From Bacteroidia bacterium (GTDB taxonomy: Bacteria > Bacteroidota > Bacteroidia > NS11-12g > UBA9320): a stretch of DNA of 64,000 nucleotides. The translations under genes were made by a program, and so were the position numbers. The stretch covers positions 1,088,001 to 1,152,000 of the forward strand of contig CBDCFW010000006.1 of the NCBI GenBank assembly GCA_965216465.1, in the 5' to 3' direction. The first letter of the stretch is position 1. Every line of letters starts with the position of its first letter. This document shows, in pieces, positions 20,815-61,167 of the stretch. The notes under the pieces were generated by a model, which was given only the letters and a program-made list of their open reading frames with translations, had not been told where the DNA came from and did not search any database.

Positions 20815-20853
20815 CATTTTTGCCTTAGTTTAAGGTGGTTTTAGTCTATACCT

Positions 20854-24129: not shown

Positions 24130-24130
24130 A

Positions 24131-29337: not shown

Positions 29338-29358
29338 TGTGACCTAATATTTAACAAA

Positions 29359-32300
29359 ATGAAAAACCTAACTAGCCTTATTATTTGCTTGTTGTTTGCC
29401 TCAACAGGGTTCGCACAGGTGCTTGAAACTATCAAGTATGATGATGGAATTGCCCAAACCGCAACTCTTGAAAATATTCAGAATCTTGAACTAATGTACA
29501 GGCACATAGATACAAATAACACTTTAGCTCCTGTTGCTTACAATTTTTATTTTGAAGATAATACCAATCCCACTCCAGATGAATACGAAAGAACCGGCTC
29601 AGTGCCGAGTACAATGTCCACAGATAATGTTTACATAGATGGAGTGAAGGTGAGATCTGGTGGGTTAGGTAAGTTTGAGTTTTCGTTTGCTGCAGGAAAT
29701 TTTGCAACCATTAACATAACACCCAATAGGTTGACGACTGGTAGATTCGACATTAATGTAATGCAATATGATTTTTCTCGCAAGGGAATTACTATACAAA
29801 GTGCAGGGTTGGCTTGTGACACCTTTAAACTTGTAATTGCCGATAGTTCTTTCGACGCAGATGAGAACATCTTTGTTCAATACATATATGATGGTTCAGA
29901 GTATGTTGAAGAGTTAACAAGTTCAAATAATTACACGGCAAAGGTGCCTAGAGACTTAAATGCAAGCAGTAATAAGATTAGCTATTTTGTTTTTAGCTCA
30001 ACGCTTAGTCATAGTGATTTAACTATAACGGGCAATGTTGCCGAATATGATACCTTAGAAGTTCGTTTGGCTGCAATTAATTTCCCAAGTTTTCATTATC
30101 AGCATTTTGATTTTCCTACATTGTCTAATGCTTACAGTTTCATAAACGACGAAGAGCATTGCAACACCAGTACCGATGCAATTGAGCTATCGTGCTCATC
30201 TTGGCCTGATTCAACGTATCTCGAAATAACGAATACGACCAGTGGTTCCTCAACTACCTATCAAAAACAAGAAACGAATGGGCTTTCTGGTAATGCTACC
30301 TTTAACCTTCCTATAGTTCAAAATGACGATAATACTTTCACCTTAACAGTTAAAGACAGCGGGTTTTGTAACACTATTTATTCTGAAGATGTAGTAAAGA
30401 ATGAAGGGAATATTCCGGTTCCCAACAACACCTTTACCAGCGACGATGAATTGTGTTTTGATCATGGAACTGGGTCTAACATTTCGCTGGTTATGAATAC
30501 AAACTTATCCGGAGCAGACTCTATTTATCAGCTTTACGGATATTCAGCAGGAACGAATCTACCTACAACCTTCGCGGATACAAAGGTGAACACTAACTTA
30601 AATGTCAATGAGACATATACCAACTCGACTACATCTATCCATTATTTATATATCGAAACACGAGCTAAAGAAGGAACTTGTTGGTCTACAACCAGTGACT
30701 TTGACACCGTAATCTTTTATCCAGCCTTGCAACAACCAGTTATAACTTTTGCTGATTCGGCATTTTGTAGCGGAACTCAATATGTTGTTGGAATGAAAGA
30801 CATGTCGAGTTTGTCGTCTTTCATAACTGACTTTGAATTGATTGAAGACCCAAATAAAACAACCAATCCGAGTCATAGCATTACAGCAAAGGCTCCTCAT
30901 ATCGATTCATTCAATGTTACCATAACTTCTTCGAACAACAACATTCAGAATGTTCATTTGCAAGGAAAGAGTATTGGTTTCAATAATTGTGAATCTGAAC
31001 CGGTTCAAGTCACGTATAAAGCCACACGCTACCCAACAGTGAGTTCAGACGTAAATCAGTCACTTGCACTCTGCAACGGTTCTGCTTTGAACATTGAACT
31101 CGATGCATTGAACAATTCACAGTTTCGTTCTTATTTCACACAGCCCAGCAGTGGTACCATAGGAGGACTTCCAGGAGGTGAAGTCACTGGAGCAGATCTC
31201 AATATCAGTTCGGTTACCAATAACAGCAATTCCAATTCACGAATCTTTGGAATCAAATCTGTAGCTCAACGCTTAGGTTGTTTGTCTGATACATTCGAAC
31301 ATACCGTAAAGGTTATGCCACAGTCGATAAATGTTTCGATTTCTGCAACAAAAGATCCTGTTTGCTCGAACGAAGAACTTCAATTTACTGCATCAAGCTT
31401 TTTAGACAATTCGAATAATCCCAATTTAGATATTGAGCTAGATGGACAGCCTACTGATCCTTCAGGGGAATTGAGTAGAAATGGTTCACAGTCTGCTTTT
31501 ACAGGAACAACGTTTAAAGATCGACTTGTAAATCCGTCTCAGGCTACCCAAACTGCAACCTATAAGTTCACTGTAACCTACGATTCAGCAGGATTAACGT
31601 GCAACTATGCCGACGAACAAGTTTCGATAGGTGTTCGACCTAGAATTGAAAGACCACAAATCACTTTTGCTGATTCAGCCTTGTGCAGTGGACAAAATCA
31701 CATTATCACACTTCAAGATACTTCAGGGTTTGCTATTCCAAATATGACTTTTGAGAATGTTAACTCTTCAGTGGTGAACGGACCTCTAACAATTACACAT
31801 ATTGAAGAAACTTCACCGCCGTCGACCAGCATGTGGAATGCACAAGTTTCAGTACCGAGCACAAATAAAGCAGTAGGTCGAATTCGTGTTGTGTTTAGAA
31901 CGGTAGGCTTTGATAATTGTAGATCGAGCAATACACCAATAGAGATTAGTGCCACCAAAATTCCAAGTATCAATACAGACTTAACTTCTGACACGGTTTG
32001 CAACGAATCGGTATTAGACATAAACTTATCTACCGATGCAGGAATGTCAGGTGTTTGGTTCAATACACGCTTTGGTCCTGCAAATGGGAATATTACAGGA
32101 ATTCCTTTTGGAAGCGAAATAAAGCATAAAGACGTTGGGCCTTATAACATGGAGAATACAGGGAATTCATTTACCCAGAACTTTGATGTATTCTCTAGAG
32201 CTACTCGATTAGGCTGCTCATCACAAGAAATAAAACGTACACCAGTTGTTTTACCGCACCTTAATACGACTCTTACCGGAGATGATGACATTTGTTCCGA

Positions 32301-33348
32301 AGAGGAAATGACGATTTCGTTCAGAAATCAGCTGAATACTGCGCAAAATCTAAGTTACAATTATCGCCTTGATAATTTCAGTTTGCCTCAAGCGGGAAGC
32401 GTTACACGTATCAACCAAAAAGATGAAGATGACGACCTAAGTTTTACTGAGACACTCAGAAACAATACCAATGATAAGCAAACGGTAGAATATACATTCA
32501 AAGCAAACTACAGCAACCGTTGTTTTTATTCCGATGATTTAACTTGGGAAGTTACCGTAAAGCCTTGGGTAGAGTTTAGCGATCCACCTTATGTTTTAGG
32601 GGAAGATGAAGTTTGCGAAAATTCTGGAGTATTTTTCATTATTAATGAAACGGAACCAGGTGGGAATTACACATGGACGACCAGCTCAGACGTAATTGTA
32701 ACCCAAGATGCTTCAATTAATGGAGGAATCAGTGCACATTTACAATTCTTAAAATCAGGTACTGAAATCATTCGCATATCAGGTTCAAACCCATCTTTTT
32801 GTTCGCAAGAAACCCAGTTTACAGTAAATGTAAATGAGAAGATAGAGGACTTCGATGTCCTCAAAATTCAAAACGTACCGCATGACATGTTAGTCGTTAA
32901 TTTAAATGAGTACGACTCGATAAAGTGGGGAACTTTTGACAAAGCGAATGTTGAAACAAGATCAGATTTCTTGTCGACATTCCAAACCCTAGCAGTTGAC
33001 AATTTTGATCCCGATAACTATTTCTATTTCGCAGAAATATTCGATGGAAATTGTAAATCAATGAACTTTTATAACTATGGGGCTTTAGCCGGGCTTCGAG
33101 GTCTTGATCACCGTTTGATTCAAGTCTACCCAAACCCTTCGAGAAATGTAGTTCACTTGGTTTGGAAGGAAAATGGACTAGTTAAAGGTGGCGAAATTCG
33201 AAATGCTCTAGGTCAACATGTAGATTGTGAGTTTATCGATTCGGGCGGTGAGATTATCATAGATGTTGGACACCTAGCAACCGGAGCTTATTTTGGGTCT
33301 GTAATGTTAGACCAAACAATGTATCACTTTAAATTTATTAAGCAATGA
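29359..33348 (+). CDS. Large T9SS cargo protein with Cys-containing Ig/PKD-like repeats (adhesin-like)
   Basis: Signal peptide; repeated xxCSG/CNG/CSN Ig-like modules; C-terminal IQVYPNP...LATGAYF...KFIKQ type A CTD. Confidence 0.85.
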   Translation: MKNLTSLIICLLFASTGFAQVLETIKYDDGIAQTATLENIQNLELMYRHIDTNNTLAPVAYNFYFEDNTNPTPDEYERTGSVPSTMSTDNVYIDGVKVRSGGLGKFEFSFAAGNFATINITPNRLTTGRFDINVMQYDFSRKGITIQSAGLACDTFKLVIADSSFDADENIFVQYIYDGSEYVEELTSSNNYTAKVPRDLNASSNKISYFVFSSTLSHSDLTITGNVAEYDTLEVRLAAINFPSFHYQHFDFPTLSNAYSFINDEEHCNTSTDAIELSCSSWPDSTYLEITNTTSGSSTTYQKQETNGLSGNATFNLPIVQNDDNTFTLTVKDSGFCNTIYSEDVVKNEGNIPVPNNTFTSDDELCFDHGTGSNISLVMNTNLSGADSIYQLYGYSAGTNLPTTFADTKVNTNLNVNETYTNSTTSIHYLYIETRAKEGTCWSTTSDFDTVIFYPALQQPVITFADSAFCSGTQYVVGMKDMSSLSSFITDFELIEDPNKTTNPSHSITAKAPHIDSFNVTITSSNNNIQNVHLQGKSIGFNNCESEPVQVTYKATRYPTVSSDVNQSLALCNGSALNIELDALNNSQFRSYFTQPSSGTIGGLPGGEVTGADLNISSVTNNSNSNSRIFGIKSVAQRLGCLSDTFEHTVKVMPQSINVSISATKDPVCSNEELQFTASSFLDNSNNPNLDIELDGQPTDPSGELSRNGSQSAFTGTTFKDRLVNPSQATQTATYKFTVTYDSAGLTCNYADEQVSIGVRPRIERPQITFADSALCSGQNHIITLQDTSGFAIPNMTFENVNSSVVNGPLTITHIEETSPPSTSMWNAQVSVPSTNKAVGRIRVVFRTVGFDNCRSSNTPIEISATKIPSINTDLTSDTVCNESVLDINLSTDAGMSGVWFNTRFGPANGNITGIPFGSEIKHKDVGPYNMENTGNSFTQNFDVFSRATRLGCSSQEIKRTPVVLPHLNTTLTGDDDICSEEEMTISFRNQLNTAQNLSYNYRLDNFSLPQAGSVTRINQKDEDDDLSFTETLRNNTNDKQTVEYTFKANYSNRCFYSDDLTWEVTVKPWVEFSDPPYVLGEDEVCENSGVFFIINETEPGGNYTWTTSSDVIVTQDASINGGISAHLQFLKSGTEIIRISGSNPSFCSQETQFTVNVNEKIEDFDVLKIQNVPHDMLVVNLNEYDSIKWGTFDKANVETRSDFLSTFQTLAVDNFDPDNYFYFAEIFDGNCKSMNFYNYGALAGLRGLDHRLIQVYPNPSRNVVHLVWKENGLVKGGEIRNALGQHVDCEFIDSGGEIIIDVGHLATGAYFGSVMLDQTMYHFKFIKQ

Positions 33349-34790
33349 GAATGACTATAGTAAATAAATTAAGACTGCTTTTTGCTTGGGTAATTGTGGG
33401 GTTGTTTGTGCTACCAAGTTCAGCTCAGAATGTTAACGACTCAACATTAGTACACAACACCTTGAAACTTGTTTCAGATTATACCAACTATGGTAAAATT
33501 GGAGGGCCACGCGAAAAGCCTAGAGATCTTAAACGTTTTAAGGCAATATTTGGTGACAGCTGTCAGCTTCAAACCTATACATTCTCGTATGGAGAAGGTG
33601 AAGGATCTGGAGAAATGAAGAGCTATTTACTTGAAGATTATTTAAAAGCATACGGCACTGTTTTCAGCGATGGAGTTACCAAAATAAACAACAATTACTA
33701 TGTTGACTATAGCTCGGCGGCTGATGGAAAGGTTAAGGTGTATATGAACGAAATACTCCGTGGTACTAATGATCTTGGAGAGTATATTTTTAGTAAAAGT
33801 GTTAAACTGCTCATTTTAGATGCCAGAAACCCTGAATCAATAGTTGTTTCCAATGTGTTAGACGTGAACACTTCCATTAAAAAACAAGTAGGTAAATCGA
33901 ACGAGTACTTCTACTTTGGTGAGGACCCATATTTGTTTGAACCTCTTGTAAGTGATCCTACTTGGGCTTATAAGCTTGGTTTTAATGTGAGCAATCCTTC
34001 GATTCAAATGCAGAACATTAGTGACCTAACTCTAAACTCAGGAAGCGGGTTTCAAATCGGTATAAATTACTATCACAATTTAGGGAAGACATTTGCTATT
34101 GGGGCAGGGCTGAACTATGCAAGAACGCAATTTGGCTATTCTGCAACCAATCTTGATGCGGAGTACAAGTCGACTGATGCCAATGGCAATGAGTTCAAAC
34201 AATTACTTACGCAAAATGATCTTTACAATGAAGATTTGTCGATACAGAACTTACGTCTTCAAGTGCTTGGTAAATTAAAGTTAGGTAAAATAAATGTTTC
34301 TGGATTTGCTGGTCCAGCGTTTGCCTTTGGCGGGGCTTCAGATTATTCAACAAACTTGAGCTATGAAGCTATTTATGGTATTGACGAAGCTGGCGGGCTG
34401 CACTATGTAGAAGAGCCAAGTGCTCGATCACTGAGTATAACTCGAGAAACGGTAACGCAAAATAGCGGAGAAACAGATTTGTATTTCGGATTGATGCAAA
34501 ATTTAGGCTACAATGTAGCACTTGACCAAGATCAAGATAGAAGTTTTGATACTGAATATAGCCCAGGCATGCACTTTGGTGTAAACCTAAGTTATCGATT
34601 TAGTTTAGGTGCATTTAATGGTGAAGTAGGAGCTGAATTTGCTCAGACTACATACAACGTAAAACAACAGCAGATTGATGAAGACTATTTTACTAACTTA
34701 AGTTCAATTGATAACCTTAACCCCTTAATATACAATGCCAGCAAGCTTTCAGTGAGCGACCTAGGCATCATTTTGATAATTTACCTATAA
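33345..34790 (+). CDS. Secreted protein with N-terminal soluble domain and C-terminal outer-membrane beta-barrel
   Basis: Signal peptide; FQIGINYYH, IGAGLNY, FGVNLSYRF, EVGAEF strands; terminal ILIIYL. Confidence 0.65.
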   Translation: MRMTIVNKLRLLFAWVIVGLFVLPSSAQNVNDSTLVHNTLKLVSDYTNYGKIGGPREKPRDLKRFKAIFGDSCQLQTYTFSYGEGEGSGEMKSYLLEDYLKAYGTVFSDGVTKINNNYYVDYSSAADGKVKVYMNEILRGTNDLGEYIFSKSVKLLILDARNPESIVVSNVLDVNTSIKKQVGKSNEYFYFGEDPYLFEPLVSDPTWAYKLGFNVSNPSIQMQNISDLTLNSGSGFQIGINYYHNLGKTFAIGAGLNYARTQFGYSATNLDAEYKSTDANGNEFKQLLTQNDLYNEDLSIQNLRLQVLGKLKLGKINVSGFAGPAFAFGGASDYSTNLSYEAIYGIDEAGGLHYVEEPSARSLSITRETVTQNSGETDLYFGLMQNLGYNVALDQDQDRSFDTEYSPGMHFGVNLSYRFSLGAFNGEVGAEFAQTTYNVKQQQIDEDYFTNLSSIDNLNPLIYNASKLSVSDLGIILIIYL

Positions 34791-34792
34791 AC

Positions 34793-35755
34793 ATGAATAA
34801 GAGAATCTTAATAGTTTTTATATCTGTCATTATCCTTGGTTTAGCCATTATTGGTCTAAGGCTGCTACTTGAAGACGAACCTGTTGCAGCTCCAGATCCT
34901 TGTATTGGCTTCTTTACACCACTGCCATCGAGCATTGATGTAGGCCAGAGTTTTATTTTACACTCTAAAGAAGGCAACCTAAGTTGGCGAATTCTTGACG
35001 AAGAGGGAGACGAAATAGAAAGTTTTGATGGTGTTGATGGAGAGTTTACCATGGATTCTGCTGGTAGCTATTCAGTTGAGGTTACCTCAAACAAAGGTTG
35101 TTCAGAAATTACCAGTGTAGAAGTCAGAGGAAAAGAAGAGAAACCAGAAAGAAATGAAAAAGTAGAGATTAAGGGTCCAAATCGTGCGTACGTTGGAAGT
35201 AATGTCAACTTCACAGCCCTAAATGTTGATGCGAATGAGTGCAAATGGAAGATGCCCACAGGTAAGGTTATTAAGCGTAAGAGCAGTGTTTCGTACCGTT
35301 TTGAAGAAACCGGAAACTTTGAAATTAAACTAAGAGTGGATGGAGAAACCTATACCCATCGTGTGAAGGTGACTAAAAGGCAGAATGTAACAACTCCATC
35401 AACCACACCTACAACGACTCCGGTTACGCGACCTCCTGCAAACACAGGTAAAAATTCTCCTGAAAAGGTTAAAGATATAATTACTAAACTTATTGCTTTA
35501 GGTGTTGAAGATTCGGATAATTACAACCCATTTAGAGCAGCTAAGTATCGAAATAACTTTGTTATTGAAGATGAAATTTGTGAAGGTTTTGTGCTTTATG
35601 TAAATGGCAAAGAAACCAAACGAACAGACTTCTTAAGAGGCTTGGGTAAGGATGAAGGAGAAGAAGGTACTGTAGACGACGTAAAATTTAATAGAAACTC
35701 CTCAGGGTGCATCGAATCGTATGAGATTTCAGGGGTTTTCCCAAGGTTAAACTAG
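34793..35755 (+). CDS. tssP: TssP-like PKD-domain membrane protein (copy 1)
   Basis: N-terminal TM anchor, two PKD/Ig-like domains (IKGP..AYVG..V.F, W, Y.F...G.F.IKL), Thr/Pro linker, C-terminal domain with Cys pair. Confidence 0.6.
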   Translation: MNKRILIVFISVIILGLAIIGLRLLLEDEPVAAPDPCIGFFTPLPSSIDVGQSFILHSKEGNLSWRILDEEGDEIESFDGVDGEFTMDSAGSYSVEVTSNKGCSEITSVEVRGKEEKPERNEKVEIKGPNRAYVGSNVNFTALNVDANECKWKMPTGKVIKRKSSVSYRFEETGNFEIKLRVDGETYTHRVKVTKRQNVTTPSTTPTTTPVTRPPANTGKNSPEKVKDIITKLIALGVEDSDNYNPFRAAKYRNNFVIEDEICEGFVLYVNGKETKRTDFLRGLGKDEGEEGTVDDVKFNRNSSGCIESYEISGVFPRLN

Positions 35756-35766
35756 AAAATTGATAT

Positions 35767-36732
35767 ATGAATAAAAGAATTTTAATATTAGTACTGGCCG
35801 TTTTATTAGTTGCAGGTGTGTTGTTCTTTCTTTCTCAACGCACAAAGTCGACTGGGCCCAAAATCGAAGTAAATGAAGAGTGTTTAGATTTTTATGAATC
35901 TCCGTCACCAAACAACTGGGCAGGCGATACAATTGATCTTAATTCAGTTTCAGAAGAAGATGAGTTAGAGTGGGTATTCATTCAAACTGAAAAAGAAGAT
36001 GTAGAGTATGAAGCGAGTGGGAATTCAACATTTATTGTTATCGATGTAGCAGGCCCATACGTAGGTATTGTTTCAAACCCTGCAGGATGTATTGATACAT
36101 TCTATTTTGAAATTGAGGAACAACTTGTTGAAGAGGAAGAAGATATCAATGTTCGAATTAAAGGACCCGGCTCAGGTATGGTCGGCCAAGAACTAGAATT
36201 TGAGGCTCGAGGTGTTACCGCTGAAAAATATGAATGGTCGATGGGAGAAGCAGGAGGAGTGATTGAGGCCGGAAATAAAATGAAGTATACCTACAATACT
36301 CCTGGTAAGTATCAAATTAAATTGCAGCTAGATAATGGCTTGTATGTTAAGTATAAAACCGTTGTAATCAATCCTGAAAGAGAAGACGTTGTTGAAACAG
36401 TTGATGAGCTAGCCAAGTTGAAAGCCAAATACGAGCAGTCTGCAAAAGCAGCAATTAATGAAATAGTTGGTTTGGGTAGTGCTGATGATTTTGACTACGA
36501 CACCGAGAAGGCAAGAGACTTATTCAATAAGAAATTCAAGAGCAATTACACGTGTGGTGATGTAACATTCGAGGTTAATGGTAAACCCATAGGAGAGCTT
36601 GCATTTTTTAGAGCTCTACAGTACAATGGGTCAACAAGTAACTACAAAGCAACTGATGTAAAATTGGAATACAACAAAGAAGATCAGTGTTTCAATAAGT
36701 ATAAAATTACCGGGTCATTCTCTGGTTTATAA
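35767..36732 (+). CDS. tssP: TssP-like PKD-domain membrane protein (copy 2)
   Basis: Starts MNKRILI like copy 1; IKGPGSGMVGQELEF, YEWSMGE, YTYNTPGKYQIKL PKD motif; C-terminal VNGK...F...C..Y.ITG shared with copy 1. Confidence 0.65.
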   Translation: MNKRILILVLAVLLVAGVLFFLSQRTKSTGPKIEVNEECLDFYESPSPNNWAGDTIDLNSVSEEDELEWVFIQTEKEDVEYEASGNSTFIVIDVAGPYVGIVSNPAGCIDTFYFEIEEQLVEEEEDINVRIKGPGSGMVGQELEFEARGVTAEKYEWSMGEAGGVIEAGNKMKYTYNTPGKYQIKLQLDNGLYVKYKTVVINPEREDVVETVDELAKLKAKYEQSAKAAINEIVGLGSADDFDYDTEKARDLFNKKFKSNYTCGDVTFEVNGKPIGELAFFRALQYNGSTSNYKATDVKLEYNKEDQCFNKYKITGSFSGL

Positions 36733-36743
36733 AGATGTAAATT

Positions 36744-37358
36744 ATGAATAGATTTGTTTTAATTCTCGCATTATTTTTTCTGTCGTTCACGGCTGAAAAG
36801 GCACAAGAAAAAACGTTGTCTTTGATTTTCGTTGACAATAGTAAAATTAGTACTTCGGATGGGCTGAACAGTGCAATGATCGATAACATGGAAGCCAAAT
36901 TGACAGAGCTTGACCAACGAGCTGAATCAAATCACTTTATGTTGTACGCTTCAAATGGACTAGAACCTAAGGTTGCAAAAAGTGTAGAGGATGCTAGACA
37001 GGTTTTAGCGACATTAAATGACTCTTATTTTGAGTTCCCCATGCAGCAGTACGATAAGGATAGAATCATTGCTGAATTTACCAAAAGTGATGCTCAAGTT
37101 GGATCTTTGGATTTGAACTTCTATGTGTCCTATACTTACGCAGAGAAATTTATTACAGATCAACCGGCAGTGCTTGGAAATCTTGTGTCTGAGCTAACGA
37201 TGAAATATGGGCTGGAACGAGAAGATAAAGTGGTGATAAACCTTCACTATCCGAAGGCTCAAAACCTTCCGAAAAATATGCAGGAAAATCTTGAAGAAAG
37301 CATATCGATTCTTAAATTTGGCCTAAATGTTGAAATAAACATTCTTGAACACAATTAG
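36744..37358 (+). CDS. Secreted/periplasmic hypothetical protein within the T6SS locus
   Basis: Signal peptide; LIFVDNS start of an alpha/beta domain; lies between the tssP-like and tssR-like genes. Confidence 0.65.
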   Translation: MNRFVLILALFFLSFTAEKAQEKTLSLIFVDNSKISTSDGLNSAMIDNMEAKLTELDQRAESNHFMLYASNGLEPKVAKSVEDARQVLATLNDSYFEFPMQQYDKDRIIAEFTKSDAQVGSLDLNFYVSYTYAEKFITDQPAVLGNLVSELTMKYGLEREDKVVINLHYPKAQNLPKNMQENLEESISILKFGLNVEINILEHN

Positions 37359-37365
37359 TAGTATT

Positions 37366-39798
37366 ATGAAACTGAAACTGACCTCTATTTTAACATTCTT
37401 AATTTTTGCGTATTCGTCAAACTGCCTCGCTCAGATAGGTGGGAGTAAGGACAAAGTCTTAAAAAAGCCGGTTAAATATGAAAGTCCTGAAGGACCAACA
37501 GGAGATATTCTGAGACCTACAGCCGAAAGAAGTGGCAAGAATTGGGTAGTGTTTTCTGACCGAAAAGACAACCAAACTTATGTAGATAAAGATCTTACTC
37601 GTCCGTATCGTCAAATTGATTTTCTTACCGCATATTATGTCCTTGAAGAGACTTCAATTGCACTTAAGGTAATTCCTTACCGACCAGAACTACTAACCCG
37701 AAGTGATGGTCTAAAGAAAAGTGTAAATCCAAATGAAGTGGGATGGGTAAGTAAGAAAGAAATGTTACTCTGGGATCACTCATTACTAGATCCTAAAACC
37801 AAATTTACGCTTAAAGCATTTTCGGTTCAGAAGCCCGAAGCAATATTAAATCCTGGTAGATATGTATCTCAAAACAAGGTGCATGTGTATGCTAGTCCTG
37901 AACTTAACCCTAATACAGAATTAGATATAGAACTCAGACTTTTTCAATTCTTGTTTGTGCTAAAGGAAGATGCTGCGAACAATTCAGTACTTGTTGCAAA
38001 AAAGAATAGTATTTCAGCAGGCAGTGCAGATGTTGCTGTACTTGGCTGGGTGAGTAAGTCTATTATTCAACTGTGGAAAGAAAGACTCTGTTTAGAACCA
38101 AACTCTGACCCCGATGCAAGCCAAGAGAGAAAGACTAACAAAATTAAATCTTCAATTTATGAAGACAAAGACGATGCACTTGCGGTAAAGATTGGAAGAG
38201 AACCTAAAAAAGGAGCTATGTGGCAGCGAGATAGTTATGAAGCTAAGATGGATCCTGACATGAAAAGATTCCCTGTTATTGAAGCCAATGATGGTGTGTA
38301 CAAGACAGGTTTTATTACCGGGTTACTAAACGAAAATGGAGTTGAAATTAACACCCCAGAAGCCCAAGCAATATTTAGCAAGTCATATCACGGAACAAGA
38401 AGCTCAGCATCAAAGATTAATGTGGTTTATGTGGTTGATGGAAATACCAATTACAAATCATATTTGAGACCAATCTTAGAGTCAATTAACAACAGTTATA
38501 AGAAGTTTGCTAATGTTGAAAATGCCTCAGAGAACACCTACCAATTTGGTGCCGTAGTTTATCGAAACTCAGCCTATAAAAACTGCAGTCCAGATAGAAG
38601 TGTCGTTCCTATCGGGTTGAGTTCTAAATTCCAGTCGATGACTAGTAAGCTGAAGACAGAAATAGAATCTGAAGCTTGCCAAGTAGGAACGAACCGTAAG
38701 TTTAGTTCACTCGATAAAGGAATGGTGAGAGCCTTGAGGATGTTCCAAAATCCTGATGAAACCAATATAGTAATCATAATAGGAGCTACGGGTTATGCTA
38801 GAACCGGAAACGACATCAATAAAGATATTGTTAAACGCTGCGTAAACAAGAACGTATCAATCCTCGGATTTCAATTATACTTTAGCCAGGATGTAGAATA
38901 CGACGAATTCTATAATCAAGTGCGTTATTGGATGAAGAATACGGCCTTTACGATTGATAAATTAACAGATGTTACCAATCAGTTCGAGCCTAAGGTAGAT
39001 AGAGTACCAGGAGAAACCAACTCGTTTCAATTAATTAACTGTGCTGTAACAGGCTATTTTCTCGGTGTTGATATCAATGAGTGGCTGAATGGTGCTGACC
39101 TGAATAGGAAGCTCCAGCAAGCAATTATGGATCAGGAGCGAAAGAACAACGCTCTTATGAAGAAGATGGATTCAGAAATGGAAGGAATGGGGGCCTCCGA
39201 TGTTAAACTAGACCCCGAATTGCTCCTGTTCTTGCACAAAATGGATCTACCCTATGACAAGATTGTTGAGTTTGTTAATAATATCAAAGCTGGAGATAAA
39301 GACTCCTATACCTTCTTTATTGAGGGCTATGCCCCTAGCGAAATATCCGGGTTAGATTATCCAACATTTAGCAATGTTATTCTAATGGATTATGACGAAT
39401 GGAGTATTCTTGATAATGCCCTTACCGACATTAGTTATGCAATTACTGCCCTCGATGATAATAGTACTAGAGAATCACTGAAAAAGGCTTATTGGGAAAC
39501 CTTAGTGTCCTATTATGGAAGAAAAGAAGCCAAGACCTTGGTGAAGGAAAAACCGCTAGATTACATCAACGAATTGCTGATCGGAATGTCTTATCAAGGT
39601 AATAGTCTGATAAGAAATCTAAAACTTGACGACATCTCTGATGAAGCGTTGTTTCCAAGAGAAAAACTCTTAGAGTATATCGAGTATATTTCTGAAAAAC
39701 AGAAGTTATTCAAGTCTACCGGAAACCCATCCAATGGATATTCGTTTAAAAGTTTTAACAAAAGGTACTACTGGGTGCCTTCAAATTATTTGCCTTAG
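37366..39798 (+). CDS. tssR: TssR-like periplasmic protein (copy 1)
   Basis: Signal peptide from ATG 37366; WVVFSDR.DN, GWVSK..MLLW..S, vWA-like INVVYVVDG, terminal YYWVP..YLP. Confidence 0.8.
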   Translation: MKLKLTSILTFLIFAYSSNCLAQIGGSKDKVLKKPVKYESPEGPTGDILRPTAERSGKNWVVFSDRKDNQTYVDKDLTRPYRQIDFLTAYYVLEETSIALKVIPYRPELLTRSDGLKKSVNPNEVGWVSKKEMLLWDHSLLDPKTKFTLKAFSVQKPEAILNPGRYVSQNKVHVYASPELNPNTELDIELRLFQFLFVLKEDAANNSVLVAKKNSISAGSADVAVLGWVSKSIIQLWKERLCLEPNSDPDASQERKTNKIKSSIYEDKDDALAVKIGREPKKGAMWQRDSYEAKMDPDMKRFPVIEANDGVYKTGFITGLLNENGVEINTPEAQAIFSKSYHGTRSSASKINVVYVVDGNTNYKSYLRPILESINNSYKKFANVENASENTYQFGAVVYRNSAYKNCSPDRSVVPIGLSSKFQSMTSKLKTEIESEACQVGTNRKFSSLDKGMVRALRMFQNPDETNIVIIIGATGYARTGNDINKDIVKRCVNKNVSILGFQLYFSQDVEYDEFYNQVRYWMKNTAFTIDKLTDVTNQFEPKVDRVPGETNSFQLINCAVTGYFLGVDINEWLNGADLNRKLQQAIMDQERKNNALMKKMDSEMEGMGASDVKLDPELLLFLHKMDLPYDKIVEFVNNIKAGDKDSYTFFIEGYAPSEISGLDYPTFSNVILMDYDEWSILDNALTDISYAITALDDNSTRESLKKAYWETLVSYYGRKEAKTLVKEKPLDYINELLIGMSYQGNSLIRNLKLDDISDEALFPREKLLEYIEYISEKQKLFKSTGNPSNGYSFKSFNKRYYWVPSNYLP

Positions 39799-39810
39799 AA
39801 ATTACCCCAT

Positions 39811-42225
39811 ATGAAGACCATAAAGATCTCATTTTTATTTACCTTACTCAATCTTCTTACCATCTGTGCAGTTGCTCAAGATTTAAAGGGCACTCCAATA
39901 CTTCTGGAGCCTGCTGAATACACCAGACCGAATGGTCCAACCGGTGAAATAGCACAACGTTATGATGATGTTACGAGAAGACCGTGGATAGTTTATTCTG
40001 ATCGCTCAGATAACATCAGCTATACGAACGAGCAATTTAACACGAAGAAGAAGGACCTTCCTTACTTAAAGGCCTTTTTAGTTATTGCCCGAAGAGGTCA
40101 TGCTTTGCATATTGTTGATTACGGCCCCATGCATTATGCTAAAAACAAATTGAATGAGCGTCCACAAGACTACGGATGGGTTGATGAGAGAAAAATGCTG
40201 TTATGGCAAAATTCGGTTTTAGATCCAAATACAAAGATCATTACCAAAGGATTGGCGATGTTTCATTATGAGGTGCTAAAAAACCCGGGGGCTTATTTTA
40301 AGTCGAACAACATTCAGGTTTATAATAATCCAGACAAGAAGGAAGAACATGTGGCCACAAATGAGTTACAGATGTATCAATTCGTTTTCATTTACAAAGA
40401 AGAAAACGGAGCTTATTTGGTGGGTAAACAACAAAAAACCAAATACAATACCATAAGTCATGAATTGATTGGCTGGGTTGACAAAGGAACGATTCAAGTT
40501 TGGGAAGGTCGTCTGTGCCTAGAACCTAATCGATCTATCGATGCAGTTGATGAGCGCAAGAGTAAAAATGTTTCCGCTTCAATCTTCGGTACATCTTCAG
40601 ATGCGAAGTCTTTTTCAGTCGGAACAGCCGGAGGCGACCCCATTTGGGATAGTGACCCAAAGGCAACTTTAATTCCTTCGAACTTTAAACGATTTCCAGT
40701 GCTAAAAACGGAATATGGATTAGTACGAACCGGTTTCTCATCTCCCATAGTTGATGAAAGAGGAGTGGTGCTTTCTTCTGTTCAAGATAAGAACAAAAGT
40801 GATGAAAAGTACATGGACTTCCGAGAAGAAAAGAAGAAGATAAACGTAATTTTTGTGATCGATGGAAACGCAGAGAATAAGAACTTTGTAAAACCAATCA
40901 TAGAGTCTATAAAACTGAATTATAGCTATCTTGGTAACAATACCTCAAACCAATACTTCTTTGGGTCTGTAATATATCGTAAGGATGCTTATGCTTCGTG
41001 TGAGGGAGTTGATAAATCGCTACAGGTTAAAACATTAACATCAAATTACCGCGATTTAACATCGTGGTTATCGCAGTCGTTGAACGATGAACTATGCCCA
41101 GTTTCAAATGCTACAAGCTACACCAATTTAACGGATGGCTTGGCGAGAGCCAATCGCATGTTAGCAGGTAAAAGCTCAAATACAAACATCGTAATTGTAA
41201 TAGGAGCAGCTGGGGTTGAAAGTTCAAAAAGCGAAGAAATGAAGAACATTACAAATAGCCTTTCAAAGGCGAATGCTTCACTATTGGCTTTTCAAGTGAA
41301 TTCAAAGAATGATGTTGCCTTTGACAATTTCTATCGCGATATGCGGAGAATGATTGCCGGGAATGCCCGCAACATTGTCAATGATATTAAAGCTTCAAAC
41401 ATTTCTGAGCAGTTAAAAGCTTCTGTAGATATTCCTGCATGGGCACGAAATCAAGATGACTATTTCGATGAATTGGAGCAAGATAAATCACCAATTTCAG
41501 GGTCGATTTCGTTCGTTGAACTTGGTCAAGAAATGCAAGTTGCACGCTTGACTTCAGAGCTAAAGAAAACAATTCTTTCAGTAGAGAGCTGGAACAATAA
41601 GCTAATTTCTGATTTAGATGTTGCTACTCAAAGTGTGGGAGGTACAAGCGTTAAAGTAAATCCAGCTATGGTTCTCTTCTTAAAAGAATCTGGAATTGGT
41701 CTTGACGATAAAATCGTTGAAAAAATATCAGGTAAATCTTACCAGTTCTACGTAGAAGGCTATACAACTCTAACCAACGATAAACTTGATAATCCGGTTT
41801 TCACTTATCAATTGCTCATGCTAAAAAGTGAATACGATAATCTTGTTAACCGGTTCAAAAGGCTATACGAGGCAAGAGGGTCAGATAATATGGATGCTGT
41901 TCGAAAGCGGTTAAAACGTGCTTATAAAGAAGTGTTGGCTTCATACCAAGGATCGAAACAAGTCGCAATGAGAAATATGGATATTCGAATGGCACATAGT
42001 CTATTGACAGGTATTCCACCAGATCTCCAATCTCATACCATAAAGAATGTTTCCATCGATGATATTGACGACAAGCGATTGTTTTCAAATGAAGAACTGG
42101 ATGAACTTCTTAACCATATCTCAACCAACTTAAAACAGCTCGAAAGAATCCCAGTTGAGGATAGCTATATCTTTAAAAATTTCGACGACATTATGTACTG
42201 GGTTCCTGTTGACTATCTCCCCTAA
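39811..42225 (+). CDS. tssR: TssR-like periplasmic protein (copy 2)
   Basis: WIVYSDRSDN, YGWVD..KMLLW.NS, RLCLEPN, INVIFVIDG, terminal YWVPVDYLP; colinear with copy 1. Confidence 0.8.
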   Translation: MKTIKISFLFTLLNLLTICAVAQDLKGTPILLEPAEYTRPNGPTGEIAQRYDDVTRRPWIVYSDRSDNISYTNEQFNTKKKDLPYLKAFLVIARRGHALHIVDYGPMHYAKNKLNERPQDYGWVDERKMLLWQNSVLDPNTKIITKGLAMFHYEVLKNPGAYFKSNNIQVYNNPDKKEEHVATNELQMYQFVFIYKEENGAYLVGKQQKTKYNTISHELIGWVDKGTIQVWEGRLCLEPNRSIDAVDERKSKNVSASIFGTSSDAKSFSVGTAGGDPIWDSDPKATLIPSNFKRFPVLKTEYGLVRTGFSSPIVDERGVVLSSVQDKNKSDEKYMDFREEKKKINVIFVIDGNAENKNFVKPIIESIKLNYSYLGNNTSNQYFFGSVIYRKDAYASCEGVDKSLQVKTLTSNYRDLTSWLSQSLNDELCPVSNATSYTNLTDGLARANRMLAGKSSNTNIVIVIGAAGVESSKSEEMKNITNSLSKANASLLAFQVNSKNDVAFDNFYRDMRRMIAGNARNIVNDIKASNISEQLKASVDIPAWARNQDDYFDELEQDKSPISGSISFVELGQEMQVARLTSELKKTILSVESWNNKLISDLDVATQSVGGTSVKVNPAMVLFLKESGIGLDDKIVEKISGKSYQFYVEGYTTLTNDKLDNPVFTYQLLMLKSEYDNLVNRFKRLYEARGSDNMDAVRKRLKRAYKEVLASYQGSKQVAMRNMDIRMAHSLLTGIPPDLQSHTIKNVSIDDIDDKRLFSNEELDELLNHISTNLKQLERIPVEDSYIFKNFDDIMYWVPVDYLP

Positions 42226-42227
42226 AA

Positions 42228-44684
42228 ATGAGTTCTCAATTATTTGAAATATCAAACTTAGTATGTACTTACAATCAAGAGAGCAATGATGTTCTTGTGG
42301 TTGATAAACTCAACTTGTATAAGGGCGAAATCGTATTCTTCCTTGGAGCTTCAGGAACAGGTAAGAGCACCTTGCTTGAAACTCTTGGCTTAATGAACAA
42401 TACGGCCAAAAAAGGAGAAATTAAGTTTGAGACAGACGACGCCCAACACGATTTGGTCAGTGTCTGGAACAAAGAATCTACAGACCGAATTGCAATTCGA
42501 AAGGAGCATTTTGGATTTATTTTCCAAAATACCAACCTCATGAACAATCTTACAGCCGAAGAGAATATTGTACTTTCAGGTTTGATAAAGGAAGATGCCT
42601 CAATTGATTCATTCGATGATGACGCTACACGATTACTTGAGAAGATAAAGCTCAAAGGAGCAGGGTTTGATAGAACGGCTTTTCCGAATAATTTATCAGG
42701 CGGTCAAAGACAGCGTTTGGCCTTTGCCAGGGCTTTAATTTCAAAAAGTACGGTAATATTTGGAGATGAACCTACAGGTAACTTGGATGATGCCACTGCA
42801 GCTCAGTTAATGTCTTTCCTACAAGAAGAAATTAAATCGCAGAACAAGTCAGCTCTCATAGTTTCTCACGACAAAGAGTTAGCTTTAGAATTTGCTGATC
42901 GAATTGTAGTTATTTCAAAAGAAGAAAATAGACCAGAAGGGTTTATTAAAGAAGAAAACATCATTGTTCGCCAGGAATGGTTAGATGACCGACAGGCTGC
43001 AATAAAAAAAATATCAGATCACTACAAAGGAGCAACTGAGAAGGCTAGTGAAAGTGTTCAAAAAGGAAAACGATATAATCTTAAAGAGCAGTTTAAAGGG
43101 CTGTATTTTAGTAAAGAATATGAGGCTTTAATGGGGCAGAAAAAGATCAACTTATGGTTGCTGCTTGCCCTCTTTGTTCTCACCTTCATCACTATTGGTT
43201 TGGCAAATGGAAGTTTGGAATATCTCGACAGAAAACTCAATAGTCCATTTGTAAAGTGGATTAGTGTAACAATTCCAGCTAACCGAGCTTCTGGCGATGA
43301 AGACATTGTTAAAAAGCTCAACGAAAGTTATGAGTATAAAAAGCGGTATGGCTATAAGAACCTGATAGCATATAGCAAGGAGACGATATATGTTTTCAAT
43401 GAATCGTCGGGAGAGTTTAATGCTGTAAATGGTCGAACTGTAATACCAGAAAAAGATAATGATCTGCTTACTTCGTACATTCTAGGTGAAGAAAATTTGA
43501 TTCGGGGCTTGAATACAGGTTATGACGATGATAAGGACTTCAGCTTCATTGTTACCAAACGATTCTTGAAAGAGTTTGGTTATGACCCAGAGACCGCTAC
43601 GCAGGTTTTTATACGGTTCAAAGACTATTTAGGCCAGGATGAGAATGGAAAGATGAAGTCAATTATGTTCAAAATTCCAGTTGAGATTCGGTCAATTGTT
43701 GAAGAGATTCCAGGTAGAAACGACTTTATCTGCACTCAATATTTTGCAGAGGTTTGGAACAACTCTAGAATGGAGACCTTTAATACTCAAGCAAAAACTA
43801 ATGACATACGAATTAAAGTCGATGGAATTAAAGATAATCAACTGAAAAAAGCTCAAGAGCAATTAGATGAATTTGTACAAGCCAATTTCTCTGGTTCAGA
43901 TCCTCTGGTTGATAATTTTCAAAACTTCACTGAGGGAATGCAAAATGGTTATTATACGGTTATAAGCTTCGAACCGGCCTTGTCTTCTTATAAAATTGCC
44001 GATTCGATATACAACCAAATGATAGACCTACCCGCACTAAAAAGTGCCAAGGAAGTTGCTAGAATTTATGACTACAGTTATGTGTACAATGTTCAAAGTA
44101 CTCCAAGCTTTGACAACTACTCGATTAACTTTTTTCATCTCGATAGTATCCGTCCTTTCTCTGACTTTTTATACGAACGCTTTAATAAGCAAGGAGAAAG
44201 TAAGATGGGTAAGGTTGAGCTAGATATGGCTAAAGTTAAAGAGAAAGATAATTATGTGTTCATGAGTAATGTGACGAGAACCATTTCTGTTTTTTTAATA
44301 TTTATAGGCATAGTGAGCAGTGCATTGCTAATATTCAACATGCTTAAACTGCATTTCAGCCAGATTAAGTCAAATATTGGTACACTGAACGCAATAGGAT
44401 TAGCTTTTAACACGACGTACAAACTCTATCTCAGAATTGTTGTTCGCTTTGTTTTAATTAGTCTACTCATTTCAGCCATACTCGCTTTCTTAATTGGAAG
44501 TTTGATCGAGTTGTATCTCAGTCAAGTGATGGTTACAGAGTTAGACCTCGATTACTTTGAATTATTCTCATTTAGAACACTCATGTTTGTGATTGTTACT
44601 GTTGCCGCTTCAGTACTTGTAACGATGTACACAATTAAACTATATTTGAAAAAATCGCCTGGAGACTTGATATATAACCGATGA
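42228..44684 (+). CDS. Fused MacB-type (type VII) ABC transporter: ATPase plus FtsX-like permease
   Basis: Walker A GASGTGKS, FGFIFQ Q-loop, LSGGQRQR signature, IFGDEPTGNLD, VSHD; TM1, large periplasmic domain, three C-terminal TMs with IGTLNAIG. Confidence 0.88.
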   Translation: MSSQLFEISNLVCTYNQESNDVLVVDKLNLYKGEIVFFLGASGTGKSTLLETLGLMNNTAKKGEIKFETDDAQHDLVSVWNKESTDRIAIRKEHFGFIFQNTNLMNNLTAEENIVLSGLIKEDASIDSFDDDATRLLEKIKLKGAGFDRTAFPNNLSGGQRQRLAFARALISKSTVIFGDEPTGNLDDATAAQLMSFLQEEIKSQNKSALIVSHDKELALEFADRIVVISKEENRPEGFIKEENIIVRQEWLDDRQAAIKKISDHYKGATEKASESVQKGKRYNLKEQFKGLYFSKEYEALMGQKKINLWLLLALFVLTFITIGLANGSLEYLDRKLNSPFVKWISVTIPANRASGDEDIVKKLNESYEYKKRYGYKNLIAYSKETIYVFNESSGEFNAVNGRTVIPEKDNDLLTSYILGEENLIRGLNTGYDDDKDFSFIVTKRFLKEFGYDPETATQVFIRFKDYLGQDENGKMKSIMFKIPVEIRSIVEEIPGRNDFICTQYFAEVWNNSRMETFNTQAKTNDIRIKVDGIKDNQLKKAQEQLDEFVQANFSGSDPLVDNFQNFTEGMQNGYYTVISFEPALSSYKIADSIYNQMIDLPALKSAKEVARIYDYSYVYNVQSTPSFDNYSINFFHLDSIRPFSDFLYERFNKQGESKMGKVELDMAKVKEKDNYVFMSNVTRTISVFLIFIGIVSSALLIFNMLKLHFSQIKSNIGTLNAIGLAFNTTYKLYLRIVVRFVLISLLISAILAFLIGSLIELYLSQVMVTELDLDYFELFSFRTLMFVIVTVAASVLVTMYTIKLYLKKSPGDLIYNR

Positions 44685-46822
44685 ATTGTAGATACCTACT
44701 CAGCTTAGTACTTTTAACACTTATTATTTACCCATCCCAAGCTCAGATAAATGATCATTTAATTGGGAGTCCGTTTGGCGGAGTTTCTTCTATCAGCTTA
44801 AACCCCGCAATAAACAATCACAATAAAACTTTCGAGTTCAACCTTTATAATTTCAATTGGAAGAAAGACTTTTTCAGTTCAAATTATTATGACTCTAAAG
44901 TCAATGATTTATCAACGATAAGGGAAGATTACAAAATGGTCTTTACTGGTGTTATGTTTACGACCGATGTTAAGGCAGCGAATAGAACGCATCAGTGGGG
45001 TTTCGGATTGTCAAATCACCGTTACGGAACTTTTAGATATGAGACAGAAAGTCAAACTTCAAGGCAACACTTCTATCAAAACAATCAAGATCGAGATTTC
45101 ACGAACCAAAATGTTTCTCAGTACAGACATCAATATGCAGATTTAGGATTAACTGTTGCTTACAATTTGATAGCAACCAAAAGAATGCAATTCAATCTTG
45201 GAGCCACCGTTAAACAAATTAGAGGTGAACACTTGCAAATTGGGTACGTTCGCGGTATGACGAGACAGTTTCCTTCTGAATCGATTCAAAACAGTTATTT
45301 TTTTAATTATCGAAATCCAGATTGGATCAATGACGGAGAAAATGCATTTCAAGAAGCCTCCTTATTTACTAAAGCAGAAGACGATCAGCCAACCAGCTTC
45401 GCCGGTGATTTTGGATTTGAATTTCAGGTACGAAAAGCAGAAGGAGTATTGCGGTATGTAATGGATGATTCTGCCAGAGCCCAAGAAGATATTAATCAAA
45501 CCCTTTTCAAAATAGGAGGATCTATAAGTAATGTAGGAGCTAATTTGGAATATCAGCGCGGAGATGCTGATGTTACTGCAGATGGTGTTTATGCACTGAA
45601 CACATCTGGTGTGAGTGATGATTTTAAACTGGAGGTGTCTGTTCCTCAGAACTTACTTGCCTATGTTGATTTCAGTTTGGGAAAAGTCTTTAGTATGAAC
45701 ATGAACTTTCGTCAGTTCTCTTACCAAACTTTTGATGGAAGCGAATACGTTTCAAAGAAAGAACAAACCATCGGTATTATTCCAAGATTCGAGAAGAAAG
45801 GTGTTGGTGTTTATGTTCCTGTTCAATATGGTTTGGAATCTGACCGAGGAAATGTTGAGATTGGTGCAGCAATGCGTATTTATTGGTTAAGCTTTCGGCT
45901 TGATAACTTAATGACCTATTTCTCAGATGCAAATACACCAAGCGGCATGCAACTAGGAGTCTTTATTCCAATACATCGGAAGATGCCTAAAGACACAGAC
46001 AAAGACTGGGTATCTGATGAGCTCGATGAATGCCCAAATGATGCTGGATTCTGGTACACTAAAGGCTGTCCTGATGCAGATGGAGATAGCGTACCAGATA
46101 GAAGCGATTTATGTGCTTTTGAATTTGGCACTAGAGCAACTTATGGTTGTCCTGATAAAGACGGCGACGGAATCAGAGACAGTGAAGATGAATGTGATTC
46201 TATTTTTGGAGTAGAAGCATTTAAGGGCTGTCCTGATACAGATGGTGATGGAGTTCCGGATAAAGAAGATAGGTGTGAACTTGATCCTGGTCCTGCTGAA
46301 GAATATGGCTGTCCTGATACTGACGGAGATGGATTATTTGACCATGAGGATGTTTGCGATGAAGAATTTGGATTACCTATACATAAAGGTTGCCCTATAG
46401 ATTCGGATAACGATGGAATTTATGATCACGAAGACAATTGCCCAACTCAAGCGGGTGATCGTGCTAACAAGGGTTGCCCATATTCAGATAAAGATAGATT
46501 CGACGCTAAAATGTTCACATTTACTGAAGATTTTATGTGGGATGTTGGAGCAGGTACCATTTCAAATGATCGGAGTTTGGAGATACTCGATGAGGTAGTA
46601 GACTTTGTTGACGATAACATGGACTATATTCTGACCATCACAATTCTGCCCGAAGATAGTACTGCTACGAGTATTGAGCTTGCAGAAGAACGGGTTGATG
46701 TTTTAGTCAGAATGCTACTTGATACAGGCCTTGATGATTCAAGATTGGAGATTGAAGTCGCTGAAAATGAGTACTTTGAAGGTAAATTTACCAAATTTTC
46801 TGTACGTCTTGAAGATTATTGA
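44681..46822 (+). CDS. Outer-membrane barrel (DUF5723-like) with TSP3 Ca-binding repeats and degenerate OmpA-like C-terminus
   Basis: Signal peptide, GGVSSISLNPA start, beta strands, six DxDGDG...GCP repeats, C-terminal SLEILDEVV...LAEERV...GLDDSRL. Confidence 0.75.
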   Translation: MNCRYLLSLVLLTLIIYPSQAQINDHLIGSPFGGVSSISLNPAINNHNKTFEFNLYNFNWKKDFFSSNYYDSKVNDLSTIREDYKMVFTGVMFTTDVKAANRTHQWGFGLSNHRYGTFRYETESQTSRQHFYQNNQDRDFTNQNVSQYRHQYADLGLTVAYNLIATKRMQFNLGATVKQIRGEHLQIGYVRGMTRQFPSESIQNSYFFNYRNPDWINDGENAFQEASLFTKAEDDQPTSFAGDFGFEFQVRKAEGVLRYVMDDSARAQEDINQTLFKIGGSISNVGANLEYQRGDADVTADGVYALNTSGVSDDFKLEVSVPQNLLAYVDFSLGKVFSMNMNFRQFSYQTFDGSEYVSKKEQTIGIIPRFEKKGVGVYVPVQYGLESDRGNVEIGAAMRIYWLSFRLDNLMTYFSDANTPSGMQLGVFIPIHRKMPKDTDKDWVSDELDECPNDAGFWYTKGCPDADGDSVPDRSDLCAFEFGTRATYGCPDKDGDGIRDSEDECDSIFGVEAFKGCPDTDGDGVPDKEDRCELDPGPAEEYGCPDTDGDGLFDHEDVCDEEFGLPIHKGCPIDSDNDGIYDHEDNCPTQAGDRANKGCPYSDKDRFDAKMFTFTEDFMWDVGAGTISNDRSLEILDEVVDFVDDNMDYILTITILPEDSTATSIELAEERVDVLVRMLLDTGLDDSRLEIEVAENEYFEGKFTKFSVRLEDY
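45992..46480 (+). repeat. Six tandem 27-28-codon thrombospondin type 3-like coding repeats
   Basis: D.DGDG..D..D.C....G.....GCP units; recurring GG(C/T)TG(T/C)CC in the DNA. Confidence 0.85.
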
Positions 46823-46833
46823 TTAACATTTAG

Positions 46834-46841
46834 TATTTTTG
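46834..46841 (+). promoter_or_regulatory. -7 promoter element upstream of tssH
   Basis: TATTTTTG in the 41-nt gap before TTG 46864. Confidence 0.5.
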
Positions 46842-46863
46842 GGTAATTTAATAACCTTATAAC

Positions 46864-56437: not shown

Positions 56438-56440
56438 GCT

Positions 56441-58211: not shown

Positions 58212-58215
58212 AAAG

Positions 58216-58983: not shown

Positions 58984-58985
58984 AT

Positions 58986-60236: not shown

Positions 60237-60239
60237 TGA

Positions 60240-61082: not shown

Positions 61083-61167
61083 TTGATATTTAGCTGATGA
61101 ACAACTAACTTTACTAACTTTGTTTATTGTGGTCTGGTTTTTGAACGTTATAAACTAAGCCTTTGGT

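Follow-up and report, generated by a model that had tools for sequence, protein, structure and literature searches.

What does an ATP-binding cassette (ABC) protein do in the midst of a class iii type VI secretion system (T6SS) locus? The question is raised by a 64,000-nucleotide stretch of DNA from a Bacteroidia bacterium (contig CBDCFW010000006.1, positions 1,088,001 to 1,152,000; hereafter the window, from whose first letter coordinates are counted), in which genes for TssN, TssK, two TssP-like proteins, two TssR proteins, ClpV, TssB, TssC, Hcp, VgrG, TssE, TssF and PAAR accompany a gene at 42228..44684 on the plus strand (P0001), encoding an ABC ATPase fused to an FtsX-type permease. An earlier note on this DNA had seen in it a possible analogue of TagS/TagT, the ABC pair of the Pseudomonas aeruginosa H1-T6SS. 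Our analysis leads us, with about even confidence, to regard the protein as a dedicated ATP-driven type VII mechanotransmitter, working as a homodimer and as the inner-membrane partner of TssR; its probable task is to drive or switch the T6SS parts that cross the envelope, not to pump drugs.

The open reading frame (ORF) is intact, starts with ATG and encodes 818 residues, in which Pfam places ABC_tran over residues 27-183 (E=4.7e-27) and FtsX over residues 689-810 (3.7e-7); a whole-chain AlphaFold2 model, built on 57 fused relatives, reached a mean predicted local distance difference test score (pLDDT) of 88.8. The nucleotide-binding domain (NBD; residues 1-265, 42228..43022, this and all further features of the gene on the plus strand) carries Walker A (GASGTGKS, 40-47), the Q-loop (IFQ, 98-100), LSGGQ (156-160), Walker B (VIFGDEP, 176-182, with the catalytic Glu181) and the H-loop (SHD, 213-215). 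K46, Q100, S157-G159, D180, E181 and H214 are invariant in the alignment of all 57 fused relatives, and a strict regular expression recovered the full motif set in 61 relatives out of 72. In the model, the domain continues through a disordered linker (268-286), then an elbow helix (289-302), to the first transmembrane (TM) helix, a long stalk (TM1, residues 304-337, 43137..43238), which is followed by the periplasmic domain (338-666, 43239..44225), a family-specific domain exceeding that of MacB in size, and by TM2-TM4 (667-807, 44226..44648). The modelled helices 304-337, 667-723, 727-767 and 782-807 match hydropathy peaks at 307-325, 677-695, 742-760 and 785-803, giving a 1+3 topology with 329 residues in the periplasm between helix ends, or about 350 between hydrophobic cores. 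Motifs, Pfam, hydropathy and AlphaFold2 thus agree with the earlier description of an intact ATPase fused to a 1+3 TM permease with a periplasmic domain of ~350 aa. A short helix ends the model, and the cytoplasmic C-terminus bears the signature (S/T)PGDLIYNR (44655..44681), which in the form PGDLIYxR was found in 69 of 72 relatives. Two further signatures mark the family, GFANGSLxYL...DPFVNW after TM1 and NIGTFKAFG between TM2 and TM3, the latter corresponding to the conserved coupling-loop motif NIGTxxAxG.

With the permease half as query, a full HMMER search returned 732 cluster representatives at E<=1e-3, of which 575 passed 1e-10 and 185 passed 1e-30. Some members of the family are fused (about 820 aa) and others split (about 520 aa); a tblastn search of the plasmid collection found no match. 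Three long fused forms (L045 8369-11563, L079 4925-8032 and P0139; 1032-1064 aa) carry about 200 extra residues between ATPase and permease that match no Pfam family. For neighbourhoods, contigs from one genome per species were scanned with a sequence pattern, 205 of 215 matches were confirmed as relatives, and 80 loci were retained with up to 10 kb of flank on each side; the pattern misses the motif variant of the window itself, so its closest kin may be under-sampled. Records of 75 of the 80 loci are titled Bacteroidota and the other five are metagenome bins, four of which are in our permease tree, where all four nest among Bacteroidota rows. ORFs of all loci were called and clustered by blastp, hidden Markov models (HMMs) were built for each cluster, and Pfam was run on representatives.

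The ABC gene is invariably paired with TssR: a TssR-family gene lies directly upstream in 74 of 74 testable loci. This count comprises 70 of the 80 loci in which the pair was found directly and four more in which the upstream gene is also TssR (a short antisense ORF artefact lies between in two of them, and the permease is broken in the other two); the remaining six loci end before that point. Such an arrangement is not that of an efflux MacB, since E. coli macB follows macA. The pair usually closes a longer module, in the order large surface protein, outer-membrane barrel, TssP-like protein, a protein of the type encoded at 36744..37358 in the window (204 aa), TssR and, usually last, the ABC protein. 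Across the 62 loci that extend at least 9 kb upstream, TssR is present in 62, the barrel in 50, a TssP-like gene in 47 (strict TssP in 23), a large immunoglobulin-like (Ig) or PKD-rich protein, often with a type IX secretion system (T9SS) sorting domain, in 45, and the 204-aa family or its homologue c6 (about 210 aa, secreted) in 35. The link to TssR and TssP at which the earlier note had guessed is thus strongly backed by the neighbourhoods. Co-occurrence with a duplicated tssR, which that note had named as a check, is not the rule: two or more upstream TssR genes occur in only 14 of the 62 loci, and duplication is not required. The second TssR of relatives is often short (about 470-640 aa), and by Pfam one such copy (L011, 514 aa) has no VWA domain.

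The window carries the full module set, in the same order as its relatives, at 29359-44684, all on the plus strand. Its first gene (29359..33348) encodes 1329 residues, PKD-rich and with a T9SS sorting domain at the C-terminus (Pfam, NCBIfam); together with its homologues, this product suggests that the system includes a surface part exported by the T9SS. After it, 33345..34790 (PF13568) encodes an outer-membrane beta-barrel protein of 481 aa, a candidate for the outer-membrane component, a part missing from the published T6SS-iii complex. Next come two TssP-like genes (34793..36732; 320 and 321 aa, each with an N-terminal TM helix and a PKD domain) and the gene for the secreted 204-aa protein (36744..37358), which matches no Pfam family and is possibly a small VWA-like protein, a weak Atlas lead pointing to VWA clusters (score 0.91). 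TssR copy 1 (37345..39798, 817 aa) and copy 2 (39811..42225, 804 aa), the putative partner of the ABC protein, each hold four Pfam TssR domains. The two TssP-like proteins are 26% and the two TssR proteins 31% identical, and both pairs are old tandem duplicates. As the earlier note had it, the ABC gene starts 2 nt past the end of TssR copy 2. At its other end, the stop overlaps the next gene by 4 nt, which agrees with that note, although the label of barrel gene that it gave to this neighbour is weak: the 713-aa product (44681..46822, plus strand) has TSP_3 repeats as its only Pfam match and a TraB-like C-terminus by a partial NCBIfam TraB match, and its barrel nature rests on a match to an outer-membrane-barrel HMM built in this analysis. 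That C-terminus resembles the Myxococcus outer-membrane exchange protein TraB, and relatives of the 713-aa protein were found upstream of the module in L050 and L075. From 29359 to 46822 the genes are tightly packed, with gaps of at most 12 nt or overlaps of 4-14 nt; a promoter/terminator scan of 29000-47500 gave a signal no higher than in shuffled sequence.

How such a protein could work is suggested by the superfamily to which its fold points. Type VII ABC proteins act by mechanotransmission on a periplasmic partner, as in MacB-MacA, LolC-LolA and FtsX-EnvC. TssR would be that partner here, to judge by its invariable pairing with the ABC protein; in the membrane complex of Bacteroides fragilis, TssR and TssP are essential parts, and TssR binds TssN, TssO and TssP (PMC10781749). 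In the mechanism that we propose, ATP binding and hydrolysis in the cytoplasmic domains would move the TM1 and TM2 stalk helices and the periplasmic domain, which would touch TssR physically and alter its conformation or docking in the periplasm. The change would be passed on to TssP and the outer-membrane parts, acting outwards from the ATPase, and in this bacterium the T6SS-iii membrane complex would be assembled, gated or switched on after translation, with a possible effect on firing. The ABC protein would export no small molecule.

Which named family, if any, does the protein belong to? Judged by its sequence, the ATPase half is an ordinary member of the MacB/Lol/FtsE group, about equally close to each: identities of the NBD are 36% with E. 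coli MacB, 35% with LolD, 33% with FtsE and 32% with YbbA. All curated NCBIfam models score far under their cut-offs on the window protein, the best being LolD (TIGR02211, 149.3 bits against 307.75), with FtsE (TIGR02673) at 126 against 264.85 and the MacB equivalog (NF007826) at 122.8 against 966, the last covering residues 4-269 only, that is, the ATPase. For the permease half, NCBIfam gave no match at E<=1, and Pfam found no MacB_PCD (PF12704) in the protein at E<=0.01, the periplasmic domain giving a weak Atlas lead to MacB_PCD/PCD-like clusters. Using hhalign, none of the alignments of the family profile with E. coli MacB, LolC, LolE, FtsX and YbbP was significant (E 0.07-0.46; LolE 0.07, LolC 0.18, FtsX 0.36), and against all PDB sequences its sole match was FtsX at E=0.53. 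A sequence phylogeny of the permease against MacB, LolC/E, FtsX and YbbP was therefore given up. Structure comparison was more telling: with Foldseek, the whole chain is best matched by MacB (5lil, 5gko and 5nik; E about 1e-25, target TM-score 0.63-0.65), and a separate model of the permease half (pLDDT 83.8) by lipoprotein-bound LolE (9rlc_E, 2e-10) and MacB (5gko, 5e-10), followed by Spr0695, LolC, YtrF, HrtB, YbbP, FtsX (weaker, E about 1e-4) and BceB, all at 8-12% identity. The predicted models thus clearly place the protein in the type VII superfamily (MacB/FtsX fold), but within none of its named families; what is new is the family, its obligate partner TssR and the system context, the fold and the working principle being already known.

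The closeness of the whole-chain fold to MacB, together with an outer-membrane barrel gene kept in most loci (50/62) and a module that on paper spans both membranes, would fit a MacAB-TolC-like exporter, which would pass a periplasmic peptide, toxin or lipid through the module barrel with TssR and TssP as adaptors. We consider this quite improbable. A Pfam scan of the window covered 53 ORFs of at least 100 aa (30 in 24890-63653 at E<=0.01 and 23 in 574-24574 at E<=1e-5), and among them no HlyD/MFP adaptor and no TolC/OEP duct was matched, in agreement with the earlier note, which had seen no MacA adaptor or TolC nearby; neither an HlyD-type adaptor nor a TolC/OEP family was found in the scanned neighbours of the relatives. 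The barrel is of the small OMP_b-brl_2 type, and the MacB equivalog reaches its low score on the ATPase alone, with no MacB_PCD match. An ordinary efflux MacB was rejected on that score, far below the cut-off, on the missing MacB_PCD and on the lack of MacA/TolC in the window.

The same comparisons bear on a Lol-like extractor, which would detach TssR, as a lipoprotein, or further lipoproteins encoded in the locus, from the inner membrane for passage to the outer one. LolE bound to a lipoprotein is the top fold match of the permease and LolD the top NCBIfam match of the ATPase, B. fragilis TssR is reported as a lipoprotein (PMC10781749), and two small lipoprotein-like ORFs stand at the start of the locus (24890 and 25345). 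However, the LolE match is no better than that of MacB, both at identities of 8-12%, the LolD score is below its cut-off (149.3 against 307.75 bits), and there is a single permease instead of a LolC/LolE pair. In addition, 40 of 71 ABC-adjacent TssR proteins have no cysteine at positions 12-35, most of them with AQ-type signal-peptidase I ends; the two window copies have Cys27 and Cys19, both in atypical contexts. Extraction of TssR in the manner of Lol was therefore judged unlikely, and we regard an extractor as very improbable altogether.

If the protein serves a T6SS, in what company do its relatives occur? Within the fetched flanks, counted over all 80 loci or over the 43 with flanks of 9 kb or more on both sides, T6SS core genes accompany 16 of 80 (11 of 43), Ser/Thr kinase, PP2C or FHA genes 23 of 80 (17 of 43), both kinds one locus (L051, with PP2C; 1/80 and 1/43), and neither kind 42 of 80 (16 of 43); these labels come from cluster HMMs, so divergent genes may be missed. 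Kinase context is present in eight gut and rumen Bacteroidales loci (L066 at 11562-16386, L039, L042, L053, L064, L068, L069 and L071), which encode on one strand, in this order, the ABC ATPase, the permease, a soluble kinase, PP2C and FHA proteins that are bitopic in the membrane, and lastly an FHA-FHA-TM-trypsin protein; none of the eight has a T6SS core gene within 10 kb. SpoIIE-type phosphatases lie just downstream of the ABC gene in four loci of the fused clade, two of them combining the phosphatase with DUF6272 and a SiaC-type phosphoprotein (L006 2927-5965, L007 12345-16074) and two carrying a Reg_prop/Y_Y_Y/SpoIIE sensor protein (L014 5359-9024, L017 11841-15506). In P0086 (967 aa), a single representative, the family permease is fused C-terminally to Ig-like and FHA domains (FHA at 886-958), a possible Rosetta-stone link to phospho-signalling if the gene model is as predicted. 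The module parts appear to be shared between contexts: hhalign gives probabilities of 97.7-99.9% for homology of the barrel, of the large protein and of the 210-aa protein, the window's 204-aa cluster matching the 210-230-aa protein of kinase-context loci at 97.7%, whereas homology at the TssP position is not clear (14.7%). In a maximum-likelihood tree of 69 permease halves, 22 fused forms, the window included, lie on one side of a branch with support 100/99; 11 of them have T6SS context and none kinase context, while a clade of 16 gut Bacteroidales rows has kinase context in 14, and T6SS context appears also in five split-form rows on other branches.

Judging from the FHA fusion and the recurrent kinase, PP2C and FHA neighbours, many lineages may use the module as a regulated switch; the same evidence favours a relay like TagS/TagT, in which the ABC protein would sense or transmit an envelope signal, such as contact or damage, from the surface protein, barrel and TssR to the cytoplasm, where it would set T6SS firing by phospho-signalling or, in the window, by another route. 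Besides the 23 loci with such genes, which in the eight Bacteroidales loci follow directly after the permease on the same strand, the four with SpoIIE-type phosphatases and P0086, the relay draws on P. aeruginosa, where TagST ATPase activity is needed for H1-T6SS activation (PMC13713981). In the same paper, TagST pulled down none of TagQ, TagR and PpkA, and TssL and TssB, structural parts of the T6SS, were enriched by proximity labelling; the role of TagST was still called unknown in 2026. Against the relay, Pkinase, PP2C and FHA were not matched among the window ORFs of at least 100 aa, nor were TagQ/TagR, PpkA, PppA or Fha found there, confirming the earlier note, which had seen no PpkA/Fha; none of the 23 fused-form loci, the clade of the window, has a kinase, PP2C-type (our own c7 model) or FHA gene; and T6SS core and PP2C genes meet in L051 only. 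A structural or energising role is the more economical for the window, because it has no such signalling genes. We hold a relay to be rather unlikely here. The analogy with TagS/TagT that had been proposed stands in part: it is supported at family level, by the 23 of 80 loci and the FHA fusion, and not by orthology; the window's clade counts 0 of 23 such loci, and TagQ/TagR, PpkA and Fha are missing from the window.

The loci with neither kind of gene raise a different alternative, that the module forms a separate system with no part in T6SS function, which here merely happens to lie inside the locus. In support of it, more than half of all loci (42/80; 16/43 with full flanks) have no T6SS or kinase genes within 10 kb, and the module is flanked by housekeeping genes in Cyclobacteriaceae and elsewhere by tubulin-like and trypsin genes or by SrfB/SrfC. 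Pfam was run on 189 of the 262 unlabelled ORFs of these 42 loci, the other 73 being short, at contig edges or from near-duplicate loci, and no hidden Hcp, MFP, TolC or further T6SS gene was found among the 189. In L048 (13175-16470) and L076 (11929-15191), an 830-aa tubulin-like (Tubulin_2) protein and a trypsin-like protease are encoded downstream, and in L057 (11536-20835) SrfB, SrfC (Virul_Fac) and a subtilase; the remaining neighbours are housekeeping genes. Several points speak against a separate system, which we think improbable. The only TssR and TssP genes of the window sit inside the module, packed between TssK/TssN and ClpV/TssBC, and five separate branches of the permease tree show T6SS context. 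Moreover, T6SS-iii genes are often split over several loci (PMC10781749), so that little can be concluded from finding no T6SS genes within 10 kb.

A role of the ABC protein as the motor of TssR in the T6SS thus remains the reading that we favour, and the following observations weigh against it. T6SS core genes are within 10 kb in only 16 of 80 loci (11 of 43), and the module may have another primary role, because it is not confined to visible T6SS loci. T6SS-iii membrane complexes have been reconstituted from TssNQOPR alone (PMC10781749), and a term search of that paper gave 0 occurrences of the word 'ABC', so an ABC protein is not generally needed. No solved or curated permease is significantly related in sequence to the permease half, for which reason the mechanistic analogy rests on the predicted fold. 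On the favourable side, pairwise distances of the permease and the adjacent TssR correlate closely (r=0.919 over 55 loci; permease against its own ATPase 0.837, against the barrel 0.877), but such high values are expected for co-inherited genes and speak for co-inheritance only, not contact.

There is also a broader reading, to which we give tentative and rather less than even credence: the six-part module would be a free-standing ATP-powered envelope machine of Bacteroidota, often under control by phosphorylation, and the ancestral source of the T6SS-iii membrane complex, with the T6SS-iii of the window still using the ABC motor and the barrel. If this were true, TssNQOPR, which as published has no outer-membrane component and no known energy source, would obtain both from the module. 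The authors of the work on that complex report no complete membrane complex outside T6SS genomes and no T6SS-lacking system as a source of co-option, and they call the origin hard to identify (PMC10781749). A TssR-paired ABC protein, found both in T6SS-iii loci and in kinase/phosphatase/FHA loci without nearby T6SS core genes, is a concrete candidate for both the energy-source and the origin question. We found no description of an ABC component of T6SS-iii in the full-text literature, a search whose scope did not extend to subscription journals and supplements, and a 2026 review of T6SS accessory genes lists TagS/TagT only for Pseudomonas and Rhodobacter and tagA-C for Bacteroidales (PMC13584744). 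The family would be a second, independent case of a MacB/Lol-type ABC protein tied to a T6SS, beside TagST.

Several further features were noted around the T6SS locus. The two lipoprotein-like ORFs that open it (24890-25348 and 25345-25896) are paralogous, match no family, and have an N-terminal RSKSSDYQNITK in common after a lipobox-like cysteine. Just upstream, at 20143-24219, lie the gene for a LuxR-type response regulator and a minus-strand gene for an M4 thermolysin-like peptidase of 1121 aa that carries a T9SS sorting domain. At the effector end (55925-63653), genes for PAAR, an adaptor-like DUF4123 protein, an M23 peptidase and a WD40 protein of 575 aa are interspersed with several family-less ORFs.

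How, then, does the protein compare with known systems? With MacB it shares the layout, an N-terminal ATPase followed by a four-TM FtsX-type permease whose TM1 and TM2 enclose the periplasmic domain; MacB is also its best match by whole-chain fold (5lil, 5gko, 5nik), and the ATPase is 36% identical to that of E. coli MacB. It differs in having TssR upstream and no MacA/TolC partner, where E. coli macB follows macA, and in its periplasmic domain of about 330 aa without MacB_PCD, a permease half with no significant similarity and the PGDLIYxR tail. Like TagS/TagT of the H1-T6SS, it is a MacB/Lol-type ABC protein encoded within a T6SS locus, and at family level its relatives adjoin genes for Ser/Thr kinase, PP2C and FHA proteins; a periplasmic VWA domain is common to PpkA and TssR. 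The likeness is at superfamily level. TagS/TagT are split and belong to a class i T6SS of another phylum, whereas the protein here is fused, belongs to class iii, and has no TagQ/TagR, PpkA, PppA or Fha beside it in the window. LolCDE provides the top permease fold match (LolE) and the top curated ATPase model (LolD), but has two permeases, LolC and LolE, in place of one, the scores are under the cut-offs, and most partner TssR proteins are probably not lipoproteins. FtsEX, acting with EnvC, PcsB or RipC, is a non-transporting type VII ABC system that drives a conformational change in a periplasmic partner encoded nearby, and by analogy the same working principle may apply here; the fold match is weaker, however, FtsE scores below its cut-off, the periplasmic domain of the window protein is much larger (about 330 aa), and TssR, the putative partner, is a VWA protein and no activator of hydrolases. 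The B. fragilis TssNQOPR complex, as described in PMC10781749, includes neither an ABC protein nor an outer-membrane barrel; TssR, TssP and TssN are common to both systems, and in the window the ABC gene sits among them.

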